Virus record (IMG/VR): IMGVR_UViG_3300045976_000088
Span: 33,605-97,604 of that record
Source: a virus
DNA length: 64,000 nucleotides
Strand: one strand, 5' to 3'
A model generated the notes under the pieces. The model saw only the letters and a list, made by a program, of their open reading frames with translations, had not been told where the DNA came from and did not search any database. Position 1 is the stretch's first letter, and each line of letters opens with the position of its first letter. The position numbers and the translations under genes are program-made. Of this stretch, positions 18,289-53,297 are shown one piece after another.

Positions 18289-18458
18289 TCCCAACCCCCG
18301 AGCAGCGCCCGGACCTGTACGACGGCTACGACTGCCAGGACGTCAAACCGCTGTCGCCGGAGTACCGGAAGACGGCACTCTCGCCGACCCTGCAGAAGAT
18401 GTTGGCAGAGCGCCAGAAGGCAAAGCAGCCCGCGAAGCCGGAAGACAAATCCGAGTAA
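18285..18458 (+). CDS. Small protein coupled to the zeta-like gene
   Basis: ATGA overlap; 57 aa, MIPTPEQRPDLYDGYD... Confidence 0.55.
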   Translation: MIPTPEQRPDLYDGYDCQDVKPLSPEYRKTALSPTLQKMLAERQKAKQPAKPEDKSE

Positions 18459-18474
18459 TTCGCATGGGGATTGC

Positions 18475-18504
18475 TTGATCAAATCTGATCATCAGCCCCA
18501 CAAT
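18475..18504 (+). promoter_or_regulatory. Sigma70-like promoter for the tRNA/ncRNA cluster, with overlapping operator
   Basis: TTGATC-N18-CACAAT; ATCAAATCTGAT at 18478-18489. Confidence 0.55.
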
Positions 18505-18517
18505 CGACCCCATCGAC

Positions 18518-18594
18518 AGCGGTGTAGCTCAGCCAGGTAGAGCAGCGGGTTCATACCCCGCGGGTCGCAGGATCGAAGCCTGCCACCGCAACCA
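18518..18594 (+). tRNA. tRNA-Met(CAT), initiator-like
   Basis: Cloverleaf: GCGGTG/CACCGC acceptor with 1:72 mismatch, GCTC/GAGC D-stem, GCGGG-TTCATAC-CCCGC anticodon arm, GCAGG/CCTGC T-stem, encoded CCA. Confidence 0.9.
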
Positions 18595-18619
18595 GATTCC
18601 TTCACCACACGGAGATCAC

Positions 18620-18802
18620 GTGAGCACCTTCACCCCCAAGCTCAACAAGCAGGTCAAGTACCGCACGCAGCGCGGCAACACGGGCACCGGCAAGATCAAG
18701 GAAATCCCGCCGGCGGGCGTGAACGGCCAGTTCATCCACGTGGTGGACTCCACCTCCAAGAAGCTGCTGAAGCTGCGTCCGGCGCAGCTGAGCGCGGCCT
18801 GA
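18620..18802 (+). CDS. Small basic hypothetical protein
   Basis: GGAG SD; 60 aa. Confidence 0.6.
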   Translation: MSTFTPKLNKQVKYRTQRGNTGTGKIKEIPPAGVNGQFIHVVDSTSKKLLKLRPAQLSAA

Positions 18803-18809
18803 GCAAGAA

Positions 18810-19462
18810 CGCAAGCGCCCGAGAAGGGCAGACGCTGAAGCGGCCGCGCGAAGTGAGCGGCGCCGGTTCGCAACCGGCATGAGAGCGCGAGGGGCTGGGC
18901 CTGACAATCCAGCCTAACCTCAGTGTGGCAAGACACGGCCGCGAGCGACGGCGCCACTCTGTAAACCCCGTCAGGGGGAAAGTGTCTAGGCCAACGCAGG
19001 CCGCGGGCGTCACCCACCGGCTGCGGAAACCGTGAACCTGGTGCACGAGCGGTGAGACCCCGCGCCGGAGACGTAACCGGCACCCTCACGCATGCGGATT
19101 GGCGTGGCCGTAAGTCGGGAATTGGAAGACCGACCTTGAAAGCATAGGTGCGCCTTGCGGGTTCGAGCCCCGTCGCCAGTCCGCAGTCGTGAGGGTGGAA
19201 GTTAAGCGGAAGCGCTGCCGCATGGTGATCTGTGTTCGCCGCGTCCTGGCTCGCGACCAGGCACCCTCAGCCTTCACGCATGCGCCTGGATAGGGGCCGT
19301 ACCCCCGAAGTCTGTACGGGGCCTCCCTTGCCGGGAGCTGGGCGCAGTCGTGAGGGTGGAGCGCACCACGGGTTGGCGCCGTGGTAGTCCTGTTTCATGG
19401 GCTTACATCTCAACTCCTCCTTTCTTGTTGACGCTGCCGCATGCGAGGCGCGCCACCCTCAA
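18810..19462 (+). ncRNA. Putative modular structured RNA cluster
   Basis: No credible ORF; repeated TCACGCATGCG...CGCAGTCGTGAGGGTGGA stems, CACCCTC/GAGGGTG complements, many hairpins and a tRNA-like insert. Confidence 0.6.
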
Positions 19463-19475
19463 CCATGATCAAAAA

Positions 19476-19490
19476 TCGTGACGCTACTCT
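19476..19490 (+). promoter_or_regulatory. TCGTGA-box promoter, short-leader type
   Basis: TCGTGA-cgc-TACTCT; GGAG SD and ATG 19516 downstream. Confidence 0.7.
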
Positions 19491-19515
19491 GTGCGTCTCA
19501 ACCCTTGGAGATCCC

Positions 19516-19752
19516 ATGTCCATCACCTCCGTTGTCGACGCCATCAAGGCAAAGGCCGAAGCCGATCTGTCCGTGTTCAAGGCCGAGCTCGTCGGCTTCG
19601 AGCACCACGTCGAATCGATCTTCAGCCTGGGCGTGAAGTACGCCGCCGAACACCTCGGCTTCAGCGCCGCCGAAGCGCAGGCCCAGCCCGAGCAGACCGC
19701 CGCCGCGCCGCAGGCCACCGAAGGCGCCGCCACCGAAGCCTCGGCGAGCTGA
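19516..19752 (+). CDS. Ala-rich hypothetical protein
   Basis: SD plus ATG; typical codon bias. Confidence 0.65.
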   Translation: MSITSVVDAIKAKAEADLSVFKAELVGFEHHVESIFSLGVKYAAEHLGFSAAEAQAQPEQTAAAPQATEGAATEASAS

Positions 19753-19771
19753 TCGCCAACAGGGAGGAGAT

Positions 19772-20158
19772 GTGTTCTCCGACCACCACGCGCTCGAACG
19801 CATCGAGCACATCGTCACCACCATCGAAAGGATGGAACGCTTCATCATGACCGCTCTCGAAGACCTGCAAGCATCGACCGCCGCCCTCGTGCAGAAAGTC
19901 GGCGCACTCGAAACCCTCACGAACTCGCTGAAGTCGCAGCTGGACACCCTGGCGAACGCCGGCGGTGCCACGCCCGACCAGCTGAACGCGCTGAAGGCGC
20001 AGATCGACGCGGCCGCGCAGGGCGTGGACGCCACGATCGCCGCCGACTCGCCGGCCGCGCCCGCGCCGGCCCCGGCCCCCGCTCCCGCGCCGGCCCCGGC
20101 GCCGGCCGACCAAGCTCCCGCCGCCGGCGCCGGCCAGGCCGCCACACCCGCGGCCTGA
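19772..20158 (+). CDS. Coiled-coil protein with (PA)n tail
   Basis: GGAGGA SD; heptad pattern; PAPAPA repeat. Confidence 0.65.
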   Translation: MFSDHHALERIEHIVTTIERMERFIMTALEDLQASTAALVQKVGALETLTNSLKSQLDTLANAGGATPDQLNALKAQIDAAAQGVDATIAADSPAAPAPAPAPAPAPAPAPADQAPAAGAGQAATPAA

Positions 20159-20171
20159 TTGCGTGTTCGCA

Positions 20172-20200
20172 GAGTCCGGGCCTTCGGGCCCGGGCTTTCT
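20172..20200 (+). terminator. Terminator-like hairpin
   Basis: GTCCGGGCC-TTCG-GGCCCGGGC followed by TTTCT. Confidence 0.6.
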
Positions 20201-20336
20201 GATCAGCGCCAGCACGCTGACATTGATCAGAGAGCTCACCGCAACCGCGGCTTGGCCCCGCGGGTGATTTGCGTGCATGCACGCACACGGCACACAACGC
20301 TGCCTCATGCGAGTGCGGTGGGTTCTCGACTGGTAG

Positions 20337-20599
20337 CACCTTCACAGAAGCGGCGTCAGGGTCTGGATGGGTACGGCGCTGCACCTGCATGCCAGGCCCG
20401 CTTCTGTGAGGGTGAATGCGCAGGCTGATGCGCGAATCGTGAGAGCAAGATCCCTTCCGGTATAGCCTCGTAGGAGGTGTCGTTAGCGGTGCGGTAGGGC
20501 TCACTGGCCCGCTCGTAAGAGCCTACCAGTGGGGATGTAAAACGAGGCGTCACTACACGCCTATTGCCTCAAAGCCGGAGATCAGCACCGGCCGCCCTC
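20337..20599 (+). ncRNA. Putative structured RNA with a kissing-loop
   Basis: 17-bp stem 20337-20353/20398-20414; GAGGGTG/CGCCCTC closure; complementary loops GGCTGA and AGATCAGCA. Confidence 0.6.
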
Positions 20600-20613
20600 A
20601 ACTCAAAAATGAG

Positions 20614-20634
20614 TCGTGATGCCCCAATCGGGGC
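20614..20634 (+). promoter_or_regulatory. TCGTGA-box promoter, leaderless type
   Basis: TCGTGA-tgc-CCCAAT-cggggc-ATG(20635); lacks the -11 A. Confidence 0.6.
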
Positions 20635-21330
20635 ATGGAACTCCTCAAGCACTTCGACCGCAACACCGCGGGCCGCGACCTGATCGTCGGCGACGTCCAT
20701 GGTTGCTTCACCAAGCTGCAGGCCGCGCTCGACGCGCTGAAATTCGACCCCGCGCGCGATCGCCTGTTCTCCGTCGGTGACCTGGTGGACCGCGGCCAGG
20801 AATCCGACGACGCCACCGAGTGGCTGGCGAAGCCATGGTTCCACGCGGTGCGCGGCAATCACGAGCAGATGGCGATCGACTTCGCGGCCGGCTTCGGCGA
20901 CCCGCGCCTCTACATGATGAACGGCGGCGCCTGGTTCATCGGCCACCCGAAGTCGCACCAGCAGTGGATGGCCGACCAGTTCGCCGCGCTGCCGATCGCG
21001 ATCGAGGTCGAAACCGAGCACGGCCTGGTCGGCATCGTGCACGCCGAGTGCCCGACGATCCGCTGGCAAGACCTGCGCGATGCGCTGACGGGCCCGGCAT
21101 CCGACGGCTTCCAGCAGCTGTGCATGTGGTCGCGCGACCGTATCACGGGCGAGCTCGTCGATCACACCGAGGGCGTCAGCGCGGTGATCGTCGGCCACAC
21201 GCCGGTAGAGCGCTGGATCACGCTGGGGAACACGATCTACATCGACAGCGGCGCGTGGCTGCCTCCGCACCGCGGGGATCGTCCGTTCACCATCCTCGAC
21301 GCCGCCACGCTGCGCCCTGCGCAGTCGTGA
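20635..21330 (+). CDS. Ser/Thr protein phosphatase (lambda NinI/PphA-like metallophosphoesterase)
   Basis: GDVHG, GDLVDRG, RGNHE, GHTP and IDSG motifs. Confidence 0.92.
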   Translation: MELLKHFDRNTAGRDLIVGDVHGCFTKLQAALDALKFDPARDRLFSVGDLVDRGQESDDATEWLAKPWFHAVRGNHEQMAIDFAAGFGDPRLYMMNGGAWFIGHPKSHQQWMADQFAALPIAIEVETEHGLVGIVHAECPTIRWQDLRDALTGPASDGFQQLCMWSRDRITGELVDHTEGVSAVIVGHTPVERWITLGNTIYIDSGAWLPPHRGDRPFTILDAATLRPAQS

Positions 21331-24457: not shown

Positions 24458-27400
24458 ATGATCATCTTCCTCAAAAAATCGCAGTTCGCGCTGTTCGACG
24501 CTCCTGTGCACGTGGCGCCCCACGTGCGCAAGGATGGCGTGGTCGTCGCCGCCCACACGCGGATCCAGAAGGTGCGGCCGAAGGCGCCGGCGCCCCAGCA
24601 GCGCACCCTGTTTGGCGACGAGCAGGAGAAGCAGAAGCGCTCGAAGCTGGACGCCTGGATCGCCAAGCATGGTGGCTTGCGCGCGATCGCCAGCATCCTG
24701 GCAACCGTCACCGAGGGCCAGCAGCAGCACCTGTTCGATCTGATGGCGAAGCTGGGCGGCAAGACGCCGGCCGAGATCGCTTCGATGTTCGATGGCCTGG
24801 CCGAGAAGGCGCCGGAGAAGGGCGAGACACCGGACCTGTTCGCGCAGCCGGCGGCCACGGAGAAGCCGGCCGAGGCGCCTGCGCCGGAGCCGAAGAAGAA
24901 GCGCGCGCCGCGCAAGGCGAAAGAGACCGAAGCCGACACCCGACAGTCAGAGGTGGCGTCCGCGATTCGGGCAGCAGTCGGCTCCTCCTCGCCGCTCGGT
25001 CGGCCGTTCCCGATCACCGTGTCATTTGGCGGTCGCGAGCAGCGGTTCATGGCGCGCATCGACGCGCTAGCGCGCGGGAAAAACAAGGGCGCCATCCACC
25101 TCATGCAGGTCGTGCAGGGACGCATCGTCAAGGGTGATGAGGTTGGGCCGATTGCGCGCTACTTCGTGCTGACGGGAAAGGACGAGCTCAAAGACGACAA
25201 GCAACTGCCGCACCGCGTCAGCGACGAGGAAAAGGCGAAGTTTGACCAGGCATTCCAGGCTGCACAGCCCGAGCCAGCCCCGGTTCCAGCACCAGCCCCG
25301 CACGACCGCGACGCTCCGTTCGGCGTAGCCGCCGGCATCACCAAGGCCGCGCGCCGCGAGATCAACGCCGAGGTCGCGCGCCTGGTGGCCGAGGGCCAGG
25401 TCGACAAAGACCTGTTCCGCCAGTACAGCGGCAACGGTGGCTGCGGCGACAGCCTGAACGAGTATTACACCGACCCCGACGTGGCGCGCGCGATGTGGGA
25501 CGTTCTGGCGCGCCTGGGCGCCGAGCACGGTACAGCGCTTGAGCCGAGCTGCGGCACTGGCGTGTTCCTGCACACCGCGCCGGCCGGCTTCCGCGTCACC
25601 GGCGTCGAGCTCGACCCGACCAGCGCGGCGGTCGCGCTGGCGCTGCACGGCGACCGGCACGAGATCAACACCGCGAGCCTGGAGCGCTTCGCGACGACCG
25701 ACGATCGCCAGTTCGACGTGGTGATCGGCAACCCGCCCTACGGCCCGCGCGGCTTCCTCGCGAAGGATGACAAGGTGGGCATGACGACCGCCGAGGCCTA
25801 CTTCTGCGACACCGCGCTCGACAAGTGCAAGCCGGGCGGCCTCGTCGCGCTGGTGGTACCCACCGGCATCATGGACAGCAGCCGCAACCGCAGCCTGCGC
25901 GAGCAGCTGCTGGTGAAGGGCCAGTTCCTCGGGGCGCTGCGCATGCCGAACACCGCGTTCGAGCACTCGCACACCGAGGTGACAACCGATGTCGTCTTCC
26001 TGCGCAAGCGCCCCGACGACGTGGTAGGCGCGCTGCAGACCGTACCGCAGGAGAAGTTGCAGCAGCTGGGCGTGTGGGACGATGATTTCCTGGCTGGTAC
26101 CTACTTCACCGAGGGCCGCGGCGCCGGCAACGTGCTGGGCACGCTGGAGGCCGGCTGGCGCGCGAAGGCCGGCATCGGCAACGACATCACAGTGACCGGA
26201 TCGATGGCCGGCGTCCCCGAAGCCATCCGCGAGTTCGCGCCGCATCCCGAGAGCGTTGGCGTGGCCGACCTGACGGTGCCGCAGATCCTGGAGGCGTTGC
26301 CAGAGGGCGCGATGCGCGACGCGGCGCTGTCTGCATCGTTCCGGCGCCCCTACACCAACACCGCCAAGATCGGCGACACCAAGACGGTCGATGGCGTCAC
26401 CTACGTGCTGCAGGGCAACCCGCCGCGCTGGCACCGGGTGGACGAGTTCATGGCGACGACAGCGGTGGCCGACGCCGCGCCGCTGGCGGCTCGCATCGAG
26501 GCGGCCATGGACGGCGGCGACCGTGAGGGCCTGGCCGAGGCCGTGCGCGCCTACGTCGAGCAGCACGGCATCCCGGCCGACAACCCCGAGCTGATGACCG
26601 CGGCCAGCGTCGACAAGACGCTGTTCCGCCTGGTGGGGGCCGTGAACCGCAAGGGCGAGCTGTCCGATGCCGTGCTCGGCCGCGCGCCGCGCAAGATCGA
26701 AGGCAGCTTCGAGACGCAGGCCGAGGCGCTGGCTCTCGACGAGAAGCGCAGCTTCACAGCCGACGAGCTCGCCGAGCGTGTTGGACGCGACGTGGACTCG
26801 GTGGTCGACCAGCTGACCGCTGACGCACGCTACGCCTACCTGGGCGATGGCCGCTGGACCACCATGTCGGCCTACCTGACCGGCGAGCTCTGGCCCAAGC
26901 TGGACGCCGCGCGCGCCGCGTTGGCGGCCGGCGCCGGCGAACTGCAGGGAAAGCTGGAGCAGCAGGCCAAGCGCCTGGAGGAGACGATTGCGCCGCGCGC
27001 GCTCGATGAGGTCGATTTTCAGATCAACAGCGCGTTTCTGCCGCTGCACGTGCTGGAGGCGTTCTTCAACTGGCGCCAGTTCGACGGCCCCGAGGCGAAC
27101 GAGTGGACGCGCAAGCAGCCGCCGATCTCGATCAAGTTCGGAGATGGCGTCTACACGATCGAGGGCGGCCTGTCCTGGAGCACCAGCAAGCTGCTGGACA
27201 AGTACCTCAACCGATCCGGCGTCAAGAAGGACGAGAAGCCGGAAATCGACAGCCTGAACGAGGAGTTCAAGAGCTGGCTGTGCGGCAGCCAGTACCGCGA
27301 TGCGGTCGAGGAGCTTTACAACCGGAAGTTCCGCGGCTACGTCGGCGAGGACTACAGCGACGCTCCGATCGACGTGCCGGGCCTGACCACCGACCGCGAC

Positions 27401-30400
27401 GTGCGCAAATGGCGCTGGTCGAGCCTGCGGCGCTCCCTTGCGACCGGCAAGGGCATCGTGGCCGACGACGTGGGCCTTGGCAAGACGCTGGGCGGCCTGC
27501 TGCTCGCTCGCATGGCGAAGATCGACGGGCGCGCCAAGAAGCCGATCATCGTCGTGCCAAAGTCGGTACTCGCCAACTGGTACAGCGAGACGCAGACCTG
27601 GTTCCCGAGCTCGCGCGTGCTCACCATCGGCGCCAACTTCAGCGAAGGCAAAGACGGCGAGCTCGTCGGGCGCGACGACGATCCGATCGAGCGCAAGCGC
27701 AAGTACCACGACCTGACGCAGAACGATTACGACTTCGTGATCATCAGCGAGCCGGCGTTCGAGGAGGTCGACCTTAACCCCGAGCTCAAAGAGGGGTACT
27801 ACAGCGACGATTTTTGGGTGCAGCGCGGCGACAAGCTGGGCAACGCCGGCGACAAGCGACGCAAGCGCATCAAGGAGCAGTACGAGCAGTCCATCGCCTC
27901 GCGCGAGTTCCAGGACCGCACCGACGCGATCTACTTCGACCAGCTGGGCGTCGACATGCTGCTGGCCGACGAGATGCACCACCAGAAGAACCTCTACGCC
28001 GCCAAGGCGCGCTTCGGCGAGCAACCGAAGTTCCTCGGCGGCCAGGGCCTGTCGAACCGCGCGCTCGACTTCAACCTCAAGACGCGCTGGGTGCGCGAGC
28101 AGAACGATGGCAAGGGCGTCTACGGCCTGACGGCCACGCCGACCAAGAACAGCCCGCTCGAAATCTACTCGATGCTGTCGCACGTAGCGCCCGAAGCATT
28201 CGAGAAGATCGGCGTGCGCAACAGCGAGGAGTTCCTGGACCGCTTCTGCGAGTTCACGAACGACAAGGTTCTGTCGACCAGCGGCGACATCGAGGATGCG
28301 CTGGTGGTGTCGGGCTTCAAGAACCTGACCGAGCTGCGCGAGATCATGGCGCGCTTCATCGACCGCCGCACCGCGGAAATGGTCGGGCTTGAGCTGCCTA
28401 AGCGCGACGACAAGCTGCACCTGGTGGGCATGACACCCAAGCAGGAGGAGGTCTACGCCAGCCTGCGCGAGCTCGCGGCCGAGGCCAAGGAGAAGGACTC
28501 CACGGGCGACGCGCACATCTTCTCCGTGATGGACAAGATGAACAAGGCGGCGCTCGACCTGGCGCTGCTCGGCGCCGAGCATGCCGGCGCGCGCAGCCCG
28601 AAGTACGACGCGATCGCCACGCAGGTGAAGGCGGGCCTGAAGGATGGCGCGCAGATCGTCTTCAGCGAGTACATCGACTCGCACGACCGGTTGGTGGCCG
28701 CGCTGGTCGACGCCGGCGTGCCGCGGAACCGCATCGGTGTGATCAACGCGAAGGTGGCGAGCAGCGCCGTGAAGCGCCAGAACATCGCCGAGGCGCTGAA
28801 CAACGGCAAGCTCGACGTGGTGATCGGCAATGCGACGATGGCCGAAGGCCTCAACATGCAGAAGCGCACCACCGACATCCACCACGCCGACGTGCCGTGG
28901 GAACCGGCGACGCTGCAGCAGCGCAACGGACGGGGCCTGCGTCAGGGCAACTACAACGAGGCCGTTCGCATCCACACCTACCTGTCCAAGGGCAGCTTCG
29001 ACGGCTACCGGTACCAGGCCGTGCGCGCTAAGAAGGACTGGCAAGACCTGCTATGGAACGGCGGAGATCGCGTCGAGAACCTGGCGCGCGAGGGCCAGTT
29101 CAGCCGCGAAGACCTGAACATCATGCTGGCGGCCGACCCCGAGGCAGCGCGCGCCGCCTACGAGAAGGACAAGTCCGCGGCGCAGCAGCGCTATGACGCC
29201 GGCCAGCGCCAGGCCGCGAACGAGCAGTTCGTGCGCTTCCAGGATATGACGCGCAGCTACGGCGCGCTGAAGAACAAGAACACCGCGAGCGCGACGCGGC
29301 TGCGCCAGAAGCTGGAGAGCGCGAAGACGGCGCTGTTCAACAACAAGTATTTCACCCACAAGCCGGCGCTCGACAGCGCGACCGACGTGCTGATCGAGCC
29401 GAGCAGTGGCACCGCGCTGCACGCTGGCGTCGGCCTCGACTACGGCAAGGAAGGCCGGTTCGTCGTGTCGGGCGTCAACGCGCGCGCAGGCACCGTGACG
29501 ATGCGGCGCTACGCCGAGGTGAGTGGTGGCAGCGCGGTGACGGTGCCGCTGAGCGAACTGGCTTCTGGCATCAAGCCGTTCGCGGTCGACAAGGACGCCG
29601 AGGCGGCCGAGGTGCGCGTCAAGCTGGAGAGTGCAGCAGCCGAGAAGCTGAACAGCTTGAAGTCCTGGGACGATGTGAAAACCATGCCATCTTCGGTGCT
29701 GGAGGCGAACCACGACCTGATTCAGCGACAGATCAAGGAAGGCGCCAAGAGCTACAAATTCAGCATGCCTTACGGCTCGGTTCCCATGGTCGACAAGCAG
29801 ACCGGTGAGCTCAAGATGGTTGAGAGCTACGAGCACACCAAGCTGCACGACACGCACGACTACTTGCTGCCGACCGAGGCGGCTAAGGAGAAGGCAATCC
29901 AAGCGTGGATGCAGGCCCGGCGAGAGGCCGAGGTCGGCAGCGAGTACGTGCACACTGGCAAGGGACGCAGCCAGAAGTCGACCCGCATGACGGCGCGCAC
30001 CTACAAGGGTGCCAGGTACGACGCGCGCACGCGCAATCCATTCACCGGTCTGCTGGGCGAGCTTGGCGGCAAGTCGTCCACCTACGGCGTCGACGGGCCG
30101 CTGGTGAAGGAGGCAAAGCGCCGCCTTGAAGTTGAGCAGCTGCATCGAATCAAGCACGCCGGCAGCCTGGAGGGCATCGTCGACGCTCTCGTGCCGCTTG
30201 CGAAGCTGGAAGGCAGCGAGAGCAGCATGGTCGCGCGCTACCCGGAAAAGGCGCTGGCATCGGCCTGGGCGCGCGCGCGCCATCTCGGGCTGCTCGACAA
30301 GCCGATGCCGCGCGGCAAGCACGGACACTACGCCGTCGGCCAGGCGACCGCATACGGCGCGCCGGAGCGCAGTGCTCACAACGCGCTGGTGCAGCTCGCC

Positions 30401-30748
30401 GCGGCCGCCGGCAGGCACGACCTGGCCGAGGCGATGGTTGCCAGCGCGGAGCGGCACGCGCAGCATGTCAACACGCCGGAGACCGCATCGGTGCTGACCA
30501 AGCACTACACGCCGAACACGCGCCGCCTGCGGCAGATCCGCGCGATCGCCGAGCGGCATGGGATGGCCGACAAGACGCTGGGGCAGTTGCGAGAGCACCG
30601 GCTGGGCGGCAACTTCTCGGTGCCGAGCGGCTACGGATATGACCCGGTTGGCATGCGCAACCAGGGCACAACGTTCATGGATAAGTGGAACGAACTCCAC
30701 GACCTGGCGAAACGCCGCGAGGCCGAGCCGCAGAAGGAGGCCGCATGA
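24458..30748 (+). CDS. DarB-like N6-adenine methyltransferase plus SNF2 helicase fusion (2096 aa)
   Basis: LEPSCGTG and GNPPY (MTase); DDVGLGKT, DEMH, TATP and QRNGRGLRQGN (SF2/SNF2). Confidence 0.88.
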   Translation: MIIFLKKSQFALFDAPVHVAPHVRKDGVVVAAHTRIQKVRPKAPAPQQRTLFGDEQEKQKRSKLDAWIAKHGGLRAIASILATVTEGQQQHLFDLMAKLGGKTPAEIASMFDGLAEKAPEKGETPDLFAQPAATEKPAEAPAPEPKKKRAPRKAKETEADTRQSEVASAIRAAVGSSSPLGRPFPITVSFGGREQRFMARIDALARGKNKGAIHLMQVVQGRIVKGDEVGPIARYFVLTGKDELKDDKQLPHRVSDEEKAKFDQAFQAAQPEPAPVPAPAPHDRDAPFGVAAGITKAARREINAEVARLVAEGQVDKDLFRQYSGNGGCGDSLNEYYTDPDVARAMWDVLARLGAEHGTALEPSCGTGVFLHTAPAGFRVTGVELDPTSAAVALALHGDRHEINTASLERFATTDDRQFDVVIGNPPYGPRGFLAKDDKVGMTTAEAYFCDTALDKCKPGGLVALVVPTGIMDSSRNRSLREQLLVKGQFLGALRMPNTAFEHSHTEVTTDVVFLRKRPDDVVGALQTVPQEKLQQLGVWDDDFLAGTYFTEGRGAGNVLGTLEAGWRAKAGIGNDITVTGSMAGVPEAIREFAPHPESVGVADLTVPQILEALPEGAMRDAALSASFRRPYTNTAKIGDTKTVDGVTYVLQGNPPRWHRVDEFMATTAVADAAPLAARIEAAMDGGDREGLAEAVRAYVEQHGIPADNPELMTAASVDKTLFRLVGAVNRKGELSDAVLGRAPRKIEGSFETQAEALALDEKRSFTADELAERVGRDVDSVVDQLTADARYAYLGDGRWTTMSAYLTGELWPKLDAARAALAAGAGELQGKLEQQAKRLEETIAPRALDEVDFQINSAFLPLHVLEAFFNWRQFDGPEANEWTRKQPPISIKFGDGVYTIEGGLSWSTSKLLDKYLNRSGVKKDEKPEIDSLNEEFKSWLCGSQYRDAVEELYNRKFRGYVGEDYSDAPIDVPGLTTDRDVRKWRWSSLRRSLATGKGIVADDVGLGKTLGGLLLARMAKIDGRAKKPIIVVPKSVLANWYSETQTWFPSSRVLTIGANFSEGKDGELVGRDDDPIERKRKYHDLTQNDYDFVIISEPAFEEVDLNPELKEGYYSDDFWVQRGDKLGNAGDKRRKRIKEQYEQSIASREFQDRTDAIYFDQLGVDMLLADEMHHQKNLYAAKARFGEQPKFLGGQGLSNRALDFNLKTRWVREQNDGKGVYGLTATPTKNSPLEIYSMLSHVAPEAFEKIGVRNSEEFLDRFCEFTNDKVLSTSGDIEDALVVSGFKNLTELREIMARFIDRRTAEMVGLELPKRDDKLHLVGMTPKQEEVYASLRELAAEAKEKDSTGDAHIFSVMDKMNKAALDLALLGAEHAGARSPKYDAIATQVKAGLKDGAQIVFSEYIDSHDRLVAALVDAGVPRNRIGVINAKVASSAVKRQNIAEALNNGKLDVVIGNATMAEGLNMQKRTTDIHHADVPWEPATLQQRNGRGLRQGNYNEAVRIHTYLSKGSFDGYRYQAVRAKKDWQDLLWNGGDRVENLAREGQFSREDLNIMLAADPEAARAAYEKDKSAAQQRYDAGQRQAANEQFVRFQDMTRSYGALKNKNTASATRLRQKLESAKTALFNNKYFTHKPALDSATDVLIEPSSGTALHAGVGLDYGKEGRFVVSGVNARAGTVTMRRYAEVSGGSAVTVPLSELASGIKPFAVDKDAEAAEVRVKLESAAAEKLNSLKSWDDVKTMPSSVLEANHDLIQRQIKEGAKSYKFSMPYGSVPMVDKQTGELKMVESYEHTKLHDTHDYLLPTEAAKEKAIQAWMQARREAEVGSEYVHTGKGRSQKSTRMTARTYKGARYDARTRNPFTGLLGELGGKSSTYGVDGPLVKEAKRRLEVEQLHRIKHAGSLEGIVDALVPLAKLEGSESSMVARYPEKALASAWARARHLGLLDKPMPRGKHGHYAVGQATAYGAPERSAHNALVQLAAAAGRHDLAEAMVASAERHAQHVNTPETASVLTKHYTPNTRRLRQIRAIAERHGMADKTLGQLREHRLGGNFSVPSGYGYDPVGMRNQGTTFMDKWNELHDLAKRREAEPQKEAA

Positions 30749-31229: not shown

Positions 31230-34200
31230 ATGAAGCCGGTTCTCCTCCTGAAATCGAAGATCCCCGAGGGGGCCCGCTGGATCACGGTGCACCCCAACGG
31301 CCCCGGCACCGAGGGCCAGCCGGTGCTGATCCAGCCGAACCCTGACGGCACCGCGCACGTGATCGGCGGCGCCGGTGGCAAGCTCAACTACCTGAAGCTC
31401 CGCGGCGTTCGCAAGGAAAGCGAGTACAAGCGCGAGGCCGAGGAGCGCAAGAAGGCAAGGACCGAGGCGGCGAAGGAGCAGCGCCAACGGGACAAAGAGG
31501 CCGGCATCCTGGAGTCGAAGAACAAGGCCCGGGAGAACCTGCGCCTGCAACAGCGCCAGCACGAGCGCGAGTTCGTCGAGACGGTGGGCCGCGCGCTCGG
31601 CTGGGATCCGAAGGAGATGCAGTTCCCGGAGGAGGACTACGCGCACCTGTCGGATGCCGCGCAGGCCAAGCTGCGGCAGAAGTTTCACCGGCAGCTGATG
31701 CAGCGAGCCAACGAGGCCATTGAGCTGCAGCGCCAGCGTCTGGTGACCGACAGCGCGGCGCGCATGCAGGCTGGCATCGGCGAGGTGCCGCTGACCGCGC
31801 GCGACGACTCCACCCTGTCGGTGCAGGATCTTGCGCCCATCCAGGAGAACCCCGGCGGCTTGGGTTTCGCGCAGGACTTCAAGAAGCGCGCGGAGGCGGC
31901 AGGCGCCGGCGAGGAGGAGATCAAGGCCGAGGCCGACAAGCTGAAGCAGGCTAAGCAGCAGCAGCTGAGCGAGGGTCAGCGCCGTGCGGCGGTCGATCGT
32001 GGCGAGACGGCGAAGCTGGTCAAGCAGGAGCTGCAGGGCATCCGCGAGCCGGCGGCGCCGAAGGCTACCGCCGACCTGGCCGACGCCAAGCGGGCCGTCG
32101 AGCTCATGAAGGCGCGCAAGAAGCTGCAGCAAATCCAGCAGAAGGCGCGCGCGGCCGCCGCCGAGATCGACAAGTCGGCCACCGAACCGAAGGCCTACGT
32201 GCTGCAGTACGAGGCCGAGCCGGACGAAAAGCTCGACGCGAAGATCGCCGAGGAGGTCAACAACGACCTGCGCACAGTGCAGACCCTGGCGTTCCTGTCG
32301 GAGGTTCAGCGCTTGGCCGGCGGCGACCCCACCGAGACCCTTGGCAAACACATTGGCATCGGCGCCTACAACTCGGTCAACTCGCTGGCGCTGGCCGTCG
32401 GCGGCGATGCGCTGGTCGACCGGTCGGTGGTCGACGTGCTGGGCATCGCCGGCGCCGCGCAGGTGCTCGCGCGCCGCATCCACGGCGACCTGCCGGACCA
32501 GGTGGAGCGCATCACCGAGGGGGTTCAGGATTTCCACCTGCACCACTACATGGACACCAGCACCGAAGCGCTTGCGCAGGCGCAGGAGCTGATGGACGCG
32601 GCGAAGGAAATCGAGCTGGGCGAGGCCGCCAATGGGGCCGACCTGCAGGTGGCGCAGGAGCTCAATTCGCGCCGGCGCCGCGCCATCGGCGACGCGCAGA
32701 AGATCCTCGGCCAGGCACTTGGCGAGATGGAGGCAAACGCCGCGCTGGTGGTTGCGCTGAAGCAGGGCCGTAAAGACTCTTTCCAGGTCAGCCTCGGCAA
32801 GGCCAGCCCGGAGGCTGCGATCACGCAGGCGCGCGCGATCGGCCTGCAGCGCGGCGACTACACCATCGAGCACGTCGCCGGCGACACGTTCCTGACCGTC
32901 AACGGCGCCGGCCTCGACCGCCTGGCGAAGCCCGTCAACCGCGCAGACCTGGAGCAGGTGCAGCGTAACCTGGCAATCATCCGCGGCGACCACGACGAGG
33001 AGGATTGGCTGCCGGAAGGCGTCGCGCGGCGACCTGACCTGGTGATGGACGTCAAGCCCGGCGTCGCGCCGCGGCTCGCGCAGCCGTTCGCGCCAAGCGG
33101 CGACCTGGAGCAGTCCCTGCGCGACTACATCGGCGGCCGCGCAGCCGACGGCGATGCGCCAGGCGACATCGTGGCCGACATCCAGTCGGCCGACTTCTTC
33201 CAGCGCGTGGGATTCGATCGCGCCGAGGCCTACCGCCAGGCGCTCGATGCCGTGGCGCCGCTCAAGGACGCCGACGGCAACCAGCAGCGCGCCGAGGCAC
33301 TGGCCGAGCACTTCGACCGGTTGGCCGACGATTTCGTGCAGCGCCATCACGGTGGCGAGCGCTCGACGCTGAACAAGCAGGCCTTCGACGTCGACGACAA
33401 GGCCACCGACGCGCTGCACCGCGCCCTGGCCGAGCACCCTGAGGGCGTGGCAGCCTACAAGCAGATCGGCGAGCTCACACACCAGGACCAGCGCGCGCTG
33501 CGCGAGTTCTTCCACGCGAACATCGCCAAGGAATCGCCCGAAGCAACCGCGCTGCGCCGCGATCTGGAGCAACACCAGGCCAACGAGCCGGAGCGCGAGA
33601 CCACGGATATGTTCGGCGAGACCGTGCCGAATCCCGAGCACGGCGAGTGGCGCGCGCGCCACGACGAGCTGTCGACCAAGGTCAACGCTTCGTCGCTGAA
33701 CTGGGCGAAGTACGCGGAAGCCATGGGCGGCCACGAGCGCGCCTACGAGGTGGTGCAGGACTTGATCAAGTCGCGCGTTGGCCGCGCGTTCGCCGACCAC
33801 TACAACCGGCTGAACCCCGGCAAGCCGCTGAAGGTCGGCAAGTCCGTCATCCGCAACAACCTGCACCACCTCGACGCCACCGACCCCGAGGCGCGCGAGC
33901 GGCGCGAGCAGCAGCACCGCGCGCTGGTCGACAGCCTGCGCGAGCGGTCGCAGGGCCGCTACGCCGCCGGCAGCGTCAGCGAGAAGCTGGATGCGGCGCG
34001 CGAGCAGCGCGAGGCCTTCGAGCAAGCGCAGATGGGGTTCTTCTCGGCCGAGGAGGCGCCGCAGGCTGCGGCCGCCGACAAGCCAATCGAGCTATCCGGC
34101 GATGAGCGGCACACCATCGGCCACGTGGCCGAGCGCCAAATCGCCGGCATGATGGGCAAGGTGGGCGCCAACTTCAAACCCGGCAAGCCGCTGCGCCTGT

Positions 34201-35771
34201 GGCAGCCGAGCATGAGCGGCGGAAAGAACGCGGCTCGCCAGCGCCTGGTGAAGATGGTTGCCGCCAACAAGCGCGTGGTGGCCGCGTTCGGCACCGGCTC
34301 CGGCAAGACGCTGCTGGAGATGGCAGCCTTCACCCACGCGCACGCGAGCAACCCCAGCAGCCGCGGCCTGATCCTGGTGCCGAGCGTGGTGCAGGGCCAG
34401 TTCGGCGGCGAGGCGCTGCGCTACCTGGAGCCAGGCAAGTACAAGTGGCACTGCGAGCCTGGCGCGGCGCGCGAGCAGCGCATCGCAGCCTACAAGGATC
34501 CATCGCACCACTTCTGCGTCATGACGCACCAGTCGTTCCGCGACGACATGATGCACCTGGGAGCCAAAGCGGCCGGGATCAGCGAGCAGGAGATGGCCGA
34601 TCGTGTGGGCGCGATGACGCCGGCCGAACGCAAAGGCTGGATGCGTGAGCTCATGCAGCGCGAGGGCATCCACTTCAACTACCTTGCCAACGACGAGAGC
34701 CAGAACGCGCTGAATCGGGCCGGCAAGGACAACTCCGGCCTTGCCAACGTGGTCGACGCGCTGGGCGACAACGCCGAGTACCTGCTGCACGCCAGCGGCG
34801 ACCCGGTGAAGAACGACGCCAGCGAGGCCTTCGACCTACTGTCTAAGATGGACCGCGAGCGCTACAACGACCGTGCCGCGTTCATGCGGCGCTACGGCGC
34901 CGACACGCTGGCGGCCAAAGACGCGCTGAAGCGCGAGATGGCCCGCTACGTCTACCCGAGCCGGATCGACCCGGACGTGCAAGCCCACAAACAGGAGTCG
35001 AAACTTGCCCTTTCCGACGGTCAGCGAAAGTCCCTCACTGAGCTCGACAAGGCCTTTGCGTCGGCGCGCCTGGCCCGCATGCAGGGGAAGGTCGACGTGG
35101 AGGCGATGCGAACGATTTCGCCTACTTCGTTTGCTGGCGTGGATGCCGCCGAACACGAGAATGTTGCGCGCGAGCTGCAGAGGAATCTTGGCATCCTGAA
35201 GTCGGCGGCCGTGCGCCGGGTGATCAACACTCACCCGGAAAACCCGGTGCTCGACGACATTGCCAAGAAGGCTTCAGAGCGCCAGGGAAAGCCTGGCGTC
35301 GTGTTCGCCCACTCGCTGCAGCAGGTCAAGATGATTGCCGAGCGCCTGCAGAAGGAGGGGCACCGCGTGGTCATGATCACTGGCGCCGACAGCGCACAGG
35401 AGAAGGAGCGCAAGCGGCTGATGTTCCGACCGGAGAAGGGTGAAGCTGAAGCCGACATCCTGGTGGCCTCCGACGCCGGCGCCACCGGCATGAACCTGCA
35501 GCGCGGTCAGTGGCTGTACCAAGCTGACACCCCGGACACCGCGATGACGCACGCGCAGCGCCGCGGCCGCATTTACCGAACCGGTCAGCAGAACGACGTC
35601 GAGCTGATCGACGCGGTGCCGGACCACCCGGAGGTCCACCGGGCCCGTGATCGGCTGATGAAGAAGTACGGCCTGCGCGAGCTTATGACGTCGCCGATGG
35701 AGGGGTTGGATGACACTGGCGTGGCCTACTACCTGAAGCAGGCGCAAGTTGCGAAAGATAATCCTTTTTGA
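31230..35771 (+). CDS. Large SNF2/SF2 helicase-like protein (1513 aa)
   Basis: FGTGSGKT, DESQ, SGDP, GATGMNLQ and QRRGRIYRTGQ motifs; long helical N-terminus. Confidence 0.8.
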   Translation: MKPVLLLKSKIPEGARWITVHPNGPGTEGQPVLIQPNPDGTAHVIGGAGGKLNYLKLRGVRKESEYKREAEERKKARTEAAKEQRQRDKEAGILESKNKARENLRLQQRQHEREFVETVGRALGWDPKEMQFPEEDYAHLSDAAQAKLRQKFHRQLMQRANEAIELQRQRLVTDSAARMQAGIGEVPLTARDDSTLSVQDLAPIQENPGGLGFAQDFKKRAEAAGAGEEEIKAEADKLKQAKQQQLSEGQRRAAVDRGETAKLVKQELQGIREPAAPKATADLADAKRAVELMKARKKLQQIQQKARAAAAEIDKSATEPKAYVLQYEAEPDEKLDAKIAEEVNNDLRTVQTLAFLSEVQRLAGGDPTETLGKHIGIGAYNSVNSLALAVGGDALVDRSVVDVLGIAGAAQVLARRIHGDLPDQVERITEGVQDFHLHHYMDTSTEALAQAQELMDAAKEIELGEAANGADLQVAQELNSRRRRAIGDAQKILGQALGEMEANAALVVALKQGRKDSFQVSLGKASPEAAITQARAIGLQRGDYTIEHVAGDTFLTVNGAGLDRLAKPVNRADLEQVQRNLAIIRGDHDEEDWLPEGVARRPDLVMDVKPGVAPRLAQPFAPSGDLEQSLRDYIGGRAADGDAPGDIVADIQSADFFQRVGFDRAEAYRQALDAVAPLKDADGNQQRAEALAEHFDRLADDFVQRHHGGERSTLNKQAFDVDDKATDALHRALAEHPEGVAAYKQIGELTHQDQRALREFFHANIAKESPEATALRRDLEQHQANEPERETTDMFGETVPNPEHGEWRARHDELSTKVNASSLNWAKYAEAMGGHERAYEVVQDLIKSRVGRAFADHYNRLNPGKPLKVGKSVIRNNLHHLDATDPEARERREQQHRALVDSLRERSQGRYAAGSVSEKLDAAREQREAFEQAQMGFFSAEEAPQAAAADKPIELSGDERHTIGHVAERQIAGMMGKVGANFKPGKPLRLWQPSMSGGKNAARQRLVKMVAANKRVVAAFGTGSGKTLLEMAAFTHAHASNPSSRGLILVPSVVQGQFGGEALRYLEPGKYKWHCEPGAAREQRIAAYKDPSHHFCVMTHQSFRDDMMHLGAKAAGISEQEMADRVGAMTPAERKGWMRELMQREGIHFNYLANDESQNALNRAGKDNSGLANVVDALGDNAEYLLHASGDPVKNDASEAFDLLSKMDRERYNDRAAFMRRYGADTLAAKDALKREMARYVYPSRIDPDVQAHKQESKLALSDGQRKSLTELDKAFASARLARMQGKVDVEAMRTISPTSFAGVDAAEHENVARELQRNLGILKSAAVRRVINTHPENPVLDDIAKKASERQGKPGVVFAHSLQQVKMIAERLQKEGHRVVMITGADSAQEKERKRLMFRPEKGEAEADILVASDAGATGMNLQRGQWLYQADTPDTAMTHAQRRGRIYRTGQQNDVELIDAVPDHPEVHRARDRLMKKYGLRELMTSPMEGLDDTGVAYYLKQAQVAKDNPF

Positions 35772-50875: not shown

Positions 50876-53297
50876 CGACGTAAAGATCCCAGTATCCGCC
50901 AACCTCAAGGGCGTCACCGACGAGCTCGATCGTCTGCCGAAGAAGATCGAGGACACGGTTCGACGTGTCGAGAAGTTCAAGTGGCACCCGTTCGACCTGA
51001 AGCAGATCGAAGCCGATCTGAAGAAGCTCGAACAGATGATGCTGGAGACGCACCGGCGCGTGCAGCAGTCGGGCGGCGGCGGCTTCGTGCTGCCGGCCTC
51101 GCCTGGCATGCCGGTCCCTGCGTTCCCGGCGGCCCCTGTGCCGGCGCCTCCTGGCCGTTATCCAGTGCCGGCGCCGCGCCAGCCGCACCGCGGGGGCGGC
51201 CGCGGCGCCTACACGCACGCTCCGACCTGGGGAACCATCCCGCAGCAGTTCATTGGCGGTGTGGGCGGCGGCTTCGGCACGATCGGCAGCTATGCGGCGC
51301 GTGGCGCGATCGCCGGCTCCTACGGTGGTGGTGGCCTGGCTGGAGGCCTGCGCGGATTGGCCGGCGGCCTGGGCATCGGCGCGCTGGCATTCGGCGCCTA
51401 TAAGGTCGGCCAGAGCGTCACCGAGGGCTATGACCTGGCGAAGGAGCGATCCGGCACGCTCGACACGCTCAAACGCCAGCTGGGAGACGTCGGCATCTCC
51501 TTCGAGCACCTGAAGGCGATCAGCGACCAGACCGCGCAGGGCCTGCAGATCAACTCGAAGGAGGCGGCAGAGCTCGCAGCGCAGTTCAACCGTCTGAGCC
51601 GGGGCGCCTACGGCGTTGATGGACTATCTGGCGCCACGCGCAACGCCGTCGGCTTCTCGCGCGCCTACGGCCTCGACCCGAGCGCCGGCGTTGGCTTTTT
51701 CGGCGCCATGGCGAACATGGACCGCCGGCAGAACAACCGCGAGCTCGCGCTGCTGCTGGCCGAGGCGATCAACCGCTCAGGCATGTCCGCGCGCGCCGAC
51801 GAGGTGATGCAGGCCATGCTGGGCTATGCGTCGTCGGTCTCGCGCATGGTGATGGGCACTGGTGGCCTGCAGGGCTACGCAGGCGCCTATTCGTCGCTGA
51901 TGGGCATGCACGGCATGACCAGCGACAACGCGGCCGGCATCCTCGGTTCCGCCAACGCCAGCGTGATGCGCATGGGCGGCGCCGGCGAAGCCGGCATGAA
52001 CTTCACCATGATGGCGCTGAGCCGCTATGGCTCTCTCAACCCGGTGCAGGCCGCCGCGCTGGCCGAGGGCGGCCTGTTCGGAACGCGCGGTGACGTGTTC
52101 GGACCCAACTCGTCGATCTCTAAGTTCATGGGTGGCGCCGGCATGCCTGGCGGCGACATGAACGTGTCGAATTTCACGGCGATCCGCGGCGCGCTGCGCG
52201 GCCTCGGCGGCAACAAGTGGCTGCAGTTGGACGCGGCCAAGCGCTATTTCGGCGTCGGCAGCCTGTCTCAGGCCGCTGCGCTGATGAACCTCGACGAAGG
52301 TGGGGCTGGCAACTTGATGCGCGCCGTGCAGAGCGCCGGCATCGACATCAACAAGCTGAACTCCAGCGGCATCCAGGCGCTGGCTGCGGCGGGCCCGAAC
52401 GCCACGCCGGAGCAACTGCGCAACCTGGCCTCATCGAATCGGCAAGAGACCGAGTTCACCAAGATGCAGGACCAGCTGAAGGCGCTGGATGACATCAAGA
52501 TCAACACCGGTGACAAGCTGATCGGCCCGATCAACGACATCCGAGGGTATGTCGCGGCGATCGCCGGGAAGATCGCGCCCGGTAATGCCGTCGACGCAGA
52601 GCGGGCGAAGGCGGCGGCCGACATGGCGGCACCATTCTCAAGCCGCAAGGCGCAACTGGAAAACGCACTGGCCGGCGAGCTCAGCGTCACCAGCTCGCAC
52701 TTCAACATGATGACTCCGGCGCAGCAGGACAGCGTGCGCCAACGTCGCGCGAGCGCGCAGGCGCAGCTGGGACAGATCAACACGCTGGCGAATGCGGAAG
52801 CGAAGTACGGTCTCCCGAAGGGATTGCTGTATGGCGTTTGGGGTGCTGAAACGTCCTTTGGCCGCGACGCCGGCAAGGTGTCGTCGGCCGGCGCACTCGG
52901 CGACTTCCAAATGATCCCCAGCACGGCGGCGCGCTTCGGTGTGAAGATTGGAGACTTCGCCTCCGAGGCCGATGGTGCCGCCCGCTACCTGCAGGAGCTC
53001 ATCAACAAGCACGGTGGCGACGTCAAGGCTGCGCTGTTCGAGTACAACGGGGTCGTGCACAACATCGCCGCCGGCGATGCCTACGTCAGCAAGGTAGCGA
53101 AGGGCGCGGCCAGCATGCCGGAATCCACTCCGCTGCCAGCTGGTCACAGCTCCACCGGCAGCACCGGCGACTTCGCTCGGATGGACCGTGAGCTCAGCAT
53201 CAACGGCACGTTCACGCTGAACGATGCCAAGGGCAACCCGATCGCTGCACCCCTGAAGACCCGAGTGAGCGTCCCGCGCGGCGCCGGAGCAGGCTGA
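50868..53297 (+). CDS. Tape measure protein with C-terminal lytic transglycosylase
   Basis: Gly/Ala-rich helical body; AETSFG...SSAGALGDFQMIPSTA...ALFEYNG SLT motifs. Confidence 0.82.
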   Translation: MADDVKIPVSANLKGVTDELDRLPKKIEDTVRRVEKFKWHPFDLKQIEADLKKLEQMMLETHRRVQQSGGGGFVLPASPGMPVPAFPAAPVPAPPGRYPVPAPRQPHRGGGRGAYTHAPTWGTIPQQFIGGVGGGFGTIGSYAARGAIAGSYGGGGLAGGLRGLAGGLGIGALAFGAYKVGQSVTEGYDLAKERSGTLDTLKRQLGDVGISFEHLKAISDQTAQGLQINSKEAAELAAQFNRLSRGAYGVDGLSGATRNAVGFSRAYGLDPSAGVGFFGAMANMDRRQNNRELALLLAEAINRSGMSARADEVMQAMLGYASSVSRMVMGTGGLQGYAGAYSSLMGMHGMTSDNAAGILGSANASVMRMGGAGEAGMNFTMMALSRYGSLNPVQAAALAEGGLFGTRGDVFGPNSSISKFMGGAGMPGGDMNVSNFTAIRGALRGLGGNKWLQLDAAKRYFGVGSLSQAAALMNLDEGGAGNLMRAVQSAGIDINKLNSSGIQALAAAGPNATPEQLRNLASSNRQETEFTKMQDQLKALDDIKINTGDKLIGPINDIRGYVAAIAGKIAPGNAVDAERAKAAADMAAPFSSRKAQLENALAGELSVTSSHFNMMTPAQQDSVRQRRASAQAQLGQINTLANAEAKYGLPKGLLYGVWGAETSFGRDAGKVSSAGALGDFQMIPSTAARFGVKIGDFASEADGAARYLQELINKHGGDVKAALFEYNGVVHNIAAGDAYVSKVAKGAASMPESTPLPAGHSSTGSTGDFARMDRELSINGTFTLNDAKGNPIAAPLKTRVSVPRGAGAG

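Follow-up and report, generated by a model that had tools for sequence, protein, structure and literature searches.

A candidate array of small structured phage RNAs in which variable inserts are held by two interlocking conserved frames

The locus and its repeated motifs

The window, which is the whole stretch of 64,000 nucleotides that was analysed, belongs to a 97.6-kb virus record of IMG/VR from soil or rhizosphere metagenomes, has a G+C content of about 66% and encodes, among others, a large terminase, a portal protein and a NinI-type phosphatase. A tRNA-Met is the sole canonical tRNA found in the window by ARAGORN and Rfam, and it is situated 5' of the array described here, on the same strand (Table 1). 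It is followed by an ORF of 60 codons and then by two ORF-free stretches, 18803-19515 and 20159-20634, which are separated from each other by two small ORFs, and the tRNA, the ORFs and the stretches are all on the plus strand. A scan of 18300-20750 for sigma-70 promoters found none, and neither a sigma-70-like promoter nor a convincing terminator was found between the tRNA and the array, which lends indirect support to the proposal that the array may be co-transcribed with the tRNA. Among public runs the stretch was found only in DNA contigs of soil and rhizosphere metagenomes, with no RNA run listed. Comparison of 18803-19516 with cultured phages by blastn returned short pieces only, and relatives sought by means of the 694-aa protein encoded upstream amounted to one distant relative, which lacks the modules.

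Several other features of the surroundings were recorded. The small ORF at 19772-20158 has a Pro/Ala-rich, low-complexity tail, where, especially at 20050-20110, hundreds of unrelated metagenome contigs pile up with joints of the 'goes back' type, so that depth at this place is uninformative. Two very long plus-strand ORFs lie downstream of the array (24458-30748, 2096 aa; 31230-35771, 1513 aa). The octamer ARTCGTGA, which may be a phage-specific expression signal, is present in seven copies, all on the plus strand (19185, 19346, 19474, 20435, 20612, 21323 and 36115), five of which fall within the RNA arrays, while two are placed exactly 23 nt ahead of the start codons at 20635 and 36138. The box CGCUGCC(G/U)(C/U)AUG occurs three times in the array (19213-19224, 19432-19443 and 20298-20309) and has been retained in L176, the syntenic relative, immediately 5' of its last module.

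Table 1. Coordinates in the window of the tRNA, the modules and the flanking hairpins
Feature	Positions	Strand	Basis
tRNA-Met (CAU)	18518-18594	+	ARAGORN; Rfam RF00005, 55.7 bits
M1, conserved structured non-coding stretch 5' of the first frame	18803-19063	+	Syntenic homologue in L176
T-arm-like hairpin GCCGG[AGACGUAA]CCGGC ('CGUAA-loop')	19064-19081	+	Sequence; directly before the first CACCCUC
H element A	19081-19197	+	Inverted repeat; fold z = -5.6; member of the H family
Module F2, 78 nt, cloverleaf-shaped	19191-19268	+	MFE fold with four arms
H element B	19270-19357	+	Repeats; fold z = -2.4; row 1 of the RNAalifold alignment
Module F3, 109 nt	19352-19460	+	Fold z = -3.9
Leader hairpin H_C	20337-20414	+	Inverted repeat; z = -5.5
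Module F4, canonical tRNA-shaped frame with cargo	20407-20600	+	Frame shared by more than 120 IMG/VR loci

The motifs on which a sequence-only reading of the window had based its proposal of a modular RNA array are present as described, with the flank TCACGCATGCG at 19086 and 19274, the flank CGCAGTCGTGAGGGTGGA, an exact 18-nt repeat, at 19182 and 19343, CACCCTC at 19081, 19262 and 19454, and GAGGGTG at 19191 and 19352. The two flanks do pair with each other and leave an identical 2x2 internal loop (C.U and A.G) in both units, which is formed by C19091 and A19092 opposite G19186 and U19187 in unit A and by C19279 and A19280 opposite G19347 and U19348 in unit B. Hairpins of 5 bp are positioned directly 5' of two CACCCTC copies, one at 19064-19081 with a loop of 8 nt and the other at 19245-19261 with a loop of 7 nt, and the same layout recurs, as an inverted repeat, at 20337-20600. 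Six of the 13 GAGGGTG/CACCCTC sites of the 64 kb fall in 19081-20414, and comparison of fold stability with shuffled sequences gave z = -5.6 for the hairpin at 19081-19198 and z = -5.5 for that at 20334-20416. This arrangement of motifs is more than chance.

The H element

The constant flanks define a conserved element, here named H, which consists of a 9-bp base, a fixed 2x2 loop with CA opposite GY, an inner stem of about 9 bp and a hypervariable insert, and both units of the array fit every position of this definition. In element A the base is formed by 19081-19090 and 19188-19197 and the inner stem by 19093-19104 and 19174-19185, with the loop CA/GU between them, and its cargo (19105-19173) includes a T-arm-like hairpin at 19157-19173. 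Element B has its base at 19270-19278/19349-19357, again with a CA/GU loop, and a cargo of three hairpins. The inserts had been called unrelated, which is not entirely so, as the hairpin in the first of them is a tRNA-like T-arm. The leader hairpin H_C, a 17-bp stem (CACCUUCACAGAAGCGG/CCGCUUCUGUGAGGGUG) without internal loop, represents a variant leader that competes for the same GAGGGUG, and leaders resembling it are present in L218, L011 and L076.

Pattern scans of IMG/VR with both flanks identified 70 contigs, which together with other loci provided 79 distinct copies of H. The variable stem positions of these copies form canonical pairs in 96% of cases, compared to a mean of 70% and a maximum of 76% in 500 shuffles of the partners, and an RNAalifold alignment of 32 copies revealed the same structure with 17 pairs, of which nine carry changes on both sides. 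The view of H as a constant stem therefore extends, with covariation, to other phages, and the notion of exchangeable payloads agrees with inserts of 28-111 nt that fall into 75 clusters for 79 copies, seven inserts, including the first of this array, having a T-arm-like hairpin. Units A and B do share identical flanks of 11 and 18 nt, as would be left by local tandem duplication of a single hairpin of no selected function, but this explanation, to which we assign virtually no weight, is refuted by at least 70 further phage contigs in which these flanks enclose other inserts and show compensatory changes. A search of Rfam 15, at gathering thresholds and at E up to 10, placed only the tRNA above threshold, besides noise such as MIR7486, the array having no match, and 14 related loci compared with Rfam gave tRNA and tmRNA only. 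No description of H was found in the literature by motif or by keyword, and the element appears to be undescribed.

The pairs of H comprise 1231 Watson-Crick, 120 G-U and 17 A-C combinations. Furthermore, tRNA genes within 1.5 kb of H are on the H strand in 31 of 31 cases, and loci with several copies of H always keep a single orientation. The excess of G-U over A-C and the agreement in strand with the tRNAs argue for an RNA pairing read from the plus strand and against a DNA palindrome.

The same two counts bear on the suggestion that the units are DNA elements, either small mobile palindromes of the MITE or REP kind or recombination sites resembling integron attC. Such elements would account for terminal inverted repeats around variable interiors, for the replacement, from strain to strain, of inserts at the borders of the repeats (see below) and for the marking, by the annotators of CUS-3, of a stretch adjoining a homologous frame as a mosaic 'boundary sequence'. 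However, this is a highly improbable explanation, because pairing is kept on one strand only (120 G-U against 17 A-C), the orientation of H matches that of neighbouring tRNAs by 31 to 0, metagenome contigs have no strand-changing joints, and there is no DNA rationale for the internal loop or for the tie to acceptor stems. DNA inversion of the shufflon type was rejected as well, as the contigs contain no strand-changing joints.

The core of H, UCACG-CA-UGCG / CGCA-GY-CGUGA, is strongly conserved across unrelated phages, in part by ascertainment as regards positions o1-o4 and i1-i2 and the loop, since the patterns used to collect H fixed the core; relaxed matches vary yet pair, with CAUG-AC-UGCG in L176, UGAC/GUCA in L254 and CACA/UGUG in phage CSP3. 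This conservation goes far beyond the needs of RNase III and hints at a specific partner. It has to be considered in this context that H could be a protein-binding handle, as the Y RNA stem is for Ro60, in which case the array would form a set of RNPs displaying variable inserts and H would not be a processing signal. The strong sequence conservation of the helix core across unrelated phages and the T-arm-like hairpin in 7 of the 79 inserts, a feature also of YrlA (PMC4201824), agree with a handle of this kind, but a TROVE (Ro60) or RtcB gene is absent from the 97.6-kb record, the 5' strand of H does not contain the GNCGAA motif of YrlA, Rfam yields no Y-RNA match even at E up to 10, and the recurrent neighbours of H are generic nin-region and terminase genes only, with no specific protein gene travelling along. 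We consider a protein handle unlikely. A search for DUF2828 gave no match, its control likewise matching nowhere.

The tRNA-shaped frames and the strand they share with H

The M1 stretch that precedes the first frame differs from its homologue in L176 by compensatory hairpin changes (GGCUGG/CCAGCC versus CCGCCGG/CCGGCGG), and none of its ORFs has a family match. The CGUAA-loop hairpin that follows has a near-identical form, GCCGGAKRACGTAACCGGC, with 100 matches in IMG/VR. A related hairpin, GCCGG[AURACGUAA]CCGGC, had 100 IMG/VR matches and is often located right 3' of capsid genes or ends larger structured RNAs, and a 24-nt motif with a 7-bp stem and CGUAA loop, ACGACUGGCCGCCGUAAGCGGCCA, is identical in six unrelated metagenome contigs (L383-L388), mostly just 3' of a stop codon (for example L384:546-569). 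In the CGUAA-loop hairpin an upstream ACG could pair with the CGU of the loop.

Module F2 possesses the acceptor GAGGGUG/CACCCUC and a T-arm-like hairpin at 19245-19261, and L099 carries an 81-nt counterpart at the same position. F2 is called as a tRNA by neither ARAGORN nor Rfam, it has no GG in the D loop and no UUC in the T loop, and its cloverleaf does not exceed shuffles significantly in stability (z = -1.3). Module F3, which is closed by GAGGGUGG.GCGC/GCGC.CCACCCUC, receives no tRNA call from ARAGORN or Rfam either, and L169 has a module at the F3 position, just 5' of the homologous ribosome-binding site and start codon. The hairpin UCAAC[UCCUCCUUUCUU]GUUGA of F3 (19410-19434) has a CU-rich loop that resembles an anti-Shine-Dalgarno sequence, and on the opposite strand this segment has the sequence of a strong ribosome-binding site with ATG-TAA after it.

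Module F4 combines the acceptor UGAGGGU/GCCCUCA with a D-type hairpin (20418-20433), a cargo (20435-20571) and a T-type hairpin (20574-20592), the loops of the two hairpins being complementary (GCUGAU/AUCAGC). The canonical frame is composed of a 5' D-type hairpin GCGCA[GGCUGA]UGCGC, an insert and a 3' T-type hairpin GCCGG[AGAUCAGCA]CCGGC with complementary loops, and a compensatory loop pair, GGUGAU/AUCACC, is present in L187. The 7-bp closing stem of the frame differs between phages and always pairs, variants being UGUGGU/ACCACA, GAGGGU/ACCCUC, GCAGAU/AUCUGC and CAUGGAGCCG/CGGCUCCAUG, among others. Judged by its signature hairpins, F4 is a full member of this family of tRNA-shaped frames with cargo; F2 and F3 have no canonical D/T signature hairpins and are therefore only frame-like.

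It is with these modules that H is interlocked, an arrangement which is new, in that the 3' strand of H (GAGGGUG) doubles as the first acceptor strand of the tRNA-shaped module that follows. The GAGGGUG copies at 19191 and 19352 pair with CACCCUC at 19262 and 19454, respectively, and, as the 3' acceptor strand is repeated in the 5' strand of H, either partner is open to each GAGGGUG. The downstream pairing suggested by the sequence-only reading is the acceptor stem of modules with a tRNA shape, whose T-arm equivalents are the 5-bp hairpins that the reading had pointed out. Other phages preserve this choice of partners, their base changes being matched. Within 160 nt, the 3' strand of H leads on to an acceptor stem downstream in 43 of 79 family members, and in 17 of the 79 copies a canonical frame comes directly after H. 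At L359 and L334 H is followed by a module with a canonical tRNA D-arm, and in a Polaromonas genome the sequence after H has features of a canonical tRNA D-arm and anticodon arm as judged by eye. The purine strand occurs as GAUGG (44), GAGGG (22), GUUGG (4) or GAAGG (4), with a corresponding change in its H partner, so that across acceptor types H and its partner pair in 94% of cases versus 80% in shuffles; that the downstream acceptor strand pairs at 100% in this comparison is by construction. Among 111 random canonical frames, some upstream arm that pairs with leader and acceptor strand together was found in 26%, compared to 7% in the reversed control, and the H core itself in 5%. A triple-helix reading of the shared strand was dropped on account of the wrong strand polarity, and a circular-RNA reading was dropped for want of a ligase gene and of evidence for a circle.

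Constrained folding of 19060-19470 gave -183.5 kcal/mol with all H pairings and -172.4 kcal/mol with all acceptor pairings, and at the second locus -116.5 kcal/mol for the H state and -111.2 kcal/mol for the acceptor state. The two states are thus 5-11 kcal/mol apart in these models, with H favoured in isolation, and their modelled energies are close enough for a switch. Since the pairing of H is more stable in isolation, formation of the tRNA-shaped state may depend on a protein, on tertiary contacts or on cleavage.

Helices that exclude each other and are similar in energy, placed in leaders of late or nin-region genes and, in the case of the CU-rich loop of F3, near the ribosome-binding site of the next ORF, could also be expected of a regulatory switch, by which the alternative pairing of H and acceptor would control downstream read-through or translation (of the ORF at 19516, of the NinI phosphatase or, in other phages, of terminase) instead of giving rise to separate RNAs. 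On the other hand, no terminator-like U-tract follows the alternative helices, the same H elements also precede modules that have no following gene, and a leader switch needs neither hypervariable inserts nor tandem repetition, which makes this explanation quite unlikely.

Insert exchange, distribution and proposed role

The stretch was compared with metagenome contigs of its own and of related samples. In two contigs, of 50.7 kb and 7.6 kb, the flanks are near-identical and 18806-19181 is replaced by another sequence, the right breakpoint of both being 19182, the exact start of the constant 3' flank. In addition, the 50.7-kb contig has 37 different bases instead of the cargo 20435-20571, with the D-type and T-type hairpins as exact borders, and the replacement cargo, used as a query against viral and metagenome contigs, had 0 matches. 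Strain variants therefore swap inserts exactly at frame borders, in line with the exchangeable payloads proposed earlier, and the cassette idea of the sequence-only reading is largely right. The syntenic relative L176, in which a tRNA end, a small ORF, the array and the phosphatase gene follow one another, carries the same frames with different modules and lacks the two ORFs.

In other phages the arrays are located between nin-region genes (NinB, NinG/Rap) and terminase genes, an interval which is the usual site of phage tRNA genes. A scan of genome contigs for H returned 20 matches, about eight of which have intact stems and are mostly from Burkholderiales, plus one Synechococcus MAG; the other matches are attributed to chance in GC-rich genomes, and a very broad host range is thus unsupported. 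Burkholderia phage CSP3, a cultured Lessievirus, carries the full composite (OQ053201.1, about 53,275-53,525; L409:800-1050), consisting of a CGUAA-loop hairpin, H with a compensatory A-U beside the loop, and a canonical frame, in an unannotated gap 5' of the SSB gene. In phage mEp460 (JQ182728.1; L326:696-889) the frame and the terminator directly after it amount to 194 nt. By Northern blot and RACE, an RNA of 193 nt, sRNA-17, has been detected from an mEp460-like prophage of E. coli K1 RS218 (PMC7719688), and to judge by this agreement in length it is probably a published, expressed member of the tRNA-shaped frame family. In the mEp460 record the frame overlaps a 'hypothetical protein' on the opposite strand, probably a mis-call. 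Aeromonas phage 62AhydR11PP (L002:3320-3385) has an unannotated tRNA-like 3' half, with a T-arm and an acceptor ending in CCA, which is situated 3' of the frame and 5' of the small terminase gene.

What the comparison shows is that both structures are conserved, covary and are specific to one strand, that they have a strand in common and that inserts are replaced at the borders, and we build on this the reading that the array encodes polycistronic small structured phage RNAs, on the plus strand, in which two interlocking constant frames hold variable inserts, a reading to which we assign a probability of about 0.55. According to this reading, the first frame, H, would be a 20-bp helix with a 9-bp base, a CA/GY loop, a 9-bp inner stem and a hypervariable insert as its cap, while the second would be tRNA-shaped, with a 7-bp acceptor and a T-arm-like hairpin, to which the canonical type would add a D-type hairpin that is loop-paired to the T-type one. 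H may serve as a leader or placeholder that occupies the acceptor strand up to completion or cleavage of the module, and, by analogy with T7 RNase III sites, which it resembles in size and central loop, it may be a processing stem. Cleavage or strand exchange would then free the tRNA-shaped modules for trimming of the RNase P type, and the inserts would be exchanged by recombination within the constant frames. A bolder version, in which we place only tentative belief, is that of a natural RNA scaffold-and-cargo system, in which the shared strand would be a folding or processing switch and the inserts would be directed, as decoys or aptamers, at factors or defences of the host. If so, it would be an RNA counterpart of gene cassettes, with frames that express, fold and release a fast-changing repertoire of inserts.

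If expressed, these RNAs would constitute a widespread class of phage non-coding RNA that annotation has missed, recording it as 'empty' intergenic sequence, as 'boundary sequence' or as 'hypothetical protein'. The system is tractable for studying the folding and processing of long inserts in tRNA operons, the targets of the inserts and their turnover between near-identical strains, questions which a cultured phage with the composite, CSP3, makes testable.

Among known systems, the polycistronic early RNA of phage T7 contains RNase III processing hairpins of the R1.1 type. H is similar to these in having a helix of about 20 bp split by a central internal loop (9 + 2 + 9 in 79 copies) and in being placed between the units of a putative polycistronic phage transcript, with neighbouring flanks forming the stem. 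It differs from them in that a large hypervariable insert takes the place of a small loop, the core is highly conserved and the helix shares sequence with the acceptor stem of the tRNA-shaped module that follows it. With regard to the frame family to which sRNA-17 probably belongs, F4 is a full member, whereas F2 and F3 have the closing stem in common with it, F2 a T-arm-like hairpin too, but are without the signature hairpins; H and its interlock are additional here. YrlA RNA (RF02553; Chen et al. 2014, PMC4201824) likewise has a long stem of its 5' and 3' ends that encloses a tRNA-like domain, as in H element A, and tandem copies near tRNA genes, whereas the array has no Ro60/TROVE gene, no GNCGAA(N)G motif and no Rfam match, and most of its inserts are not tRNA-like. 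Finally, in the engineered 'tRNA scaffold' (Ponchon and Dardel; PMC3753655) a constant frame also protects and presents an arbitrary structured insert, which replaces the anticodon arm; the array differs in being natural and arrayed, in replacing the D/T elbow by Watson-Crick contacts between loops and in its leader hairpin H. Its design, which combines an invariant frame with a structured, hypervariable insert and with a leader in competition for the acceptor strand, would be the natural counterpart of such engineered tRNA scaffolds.
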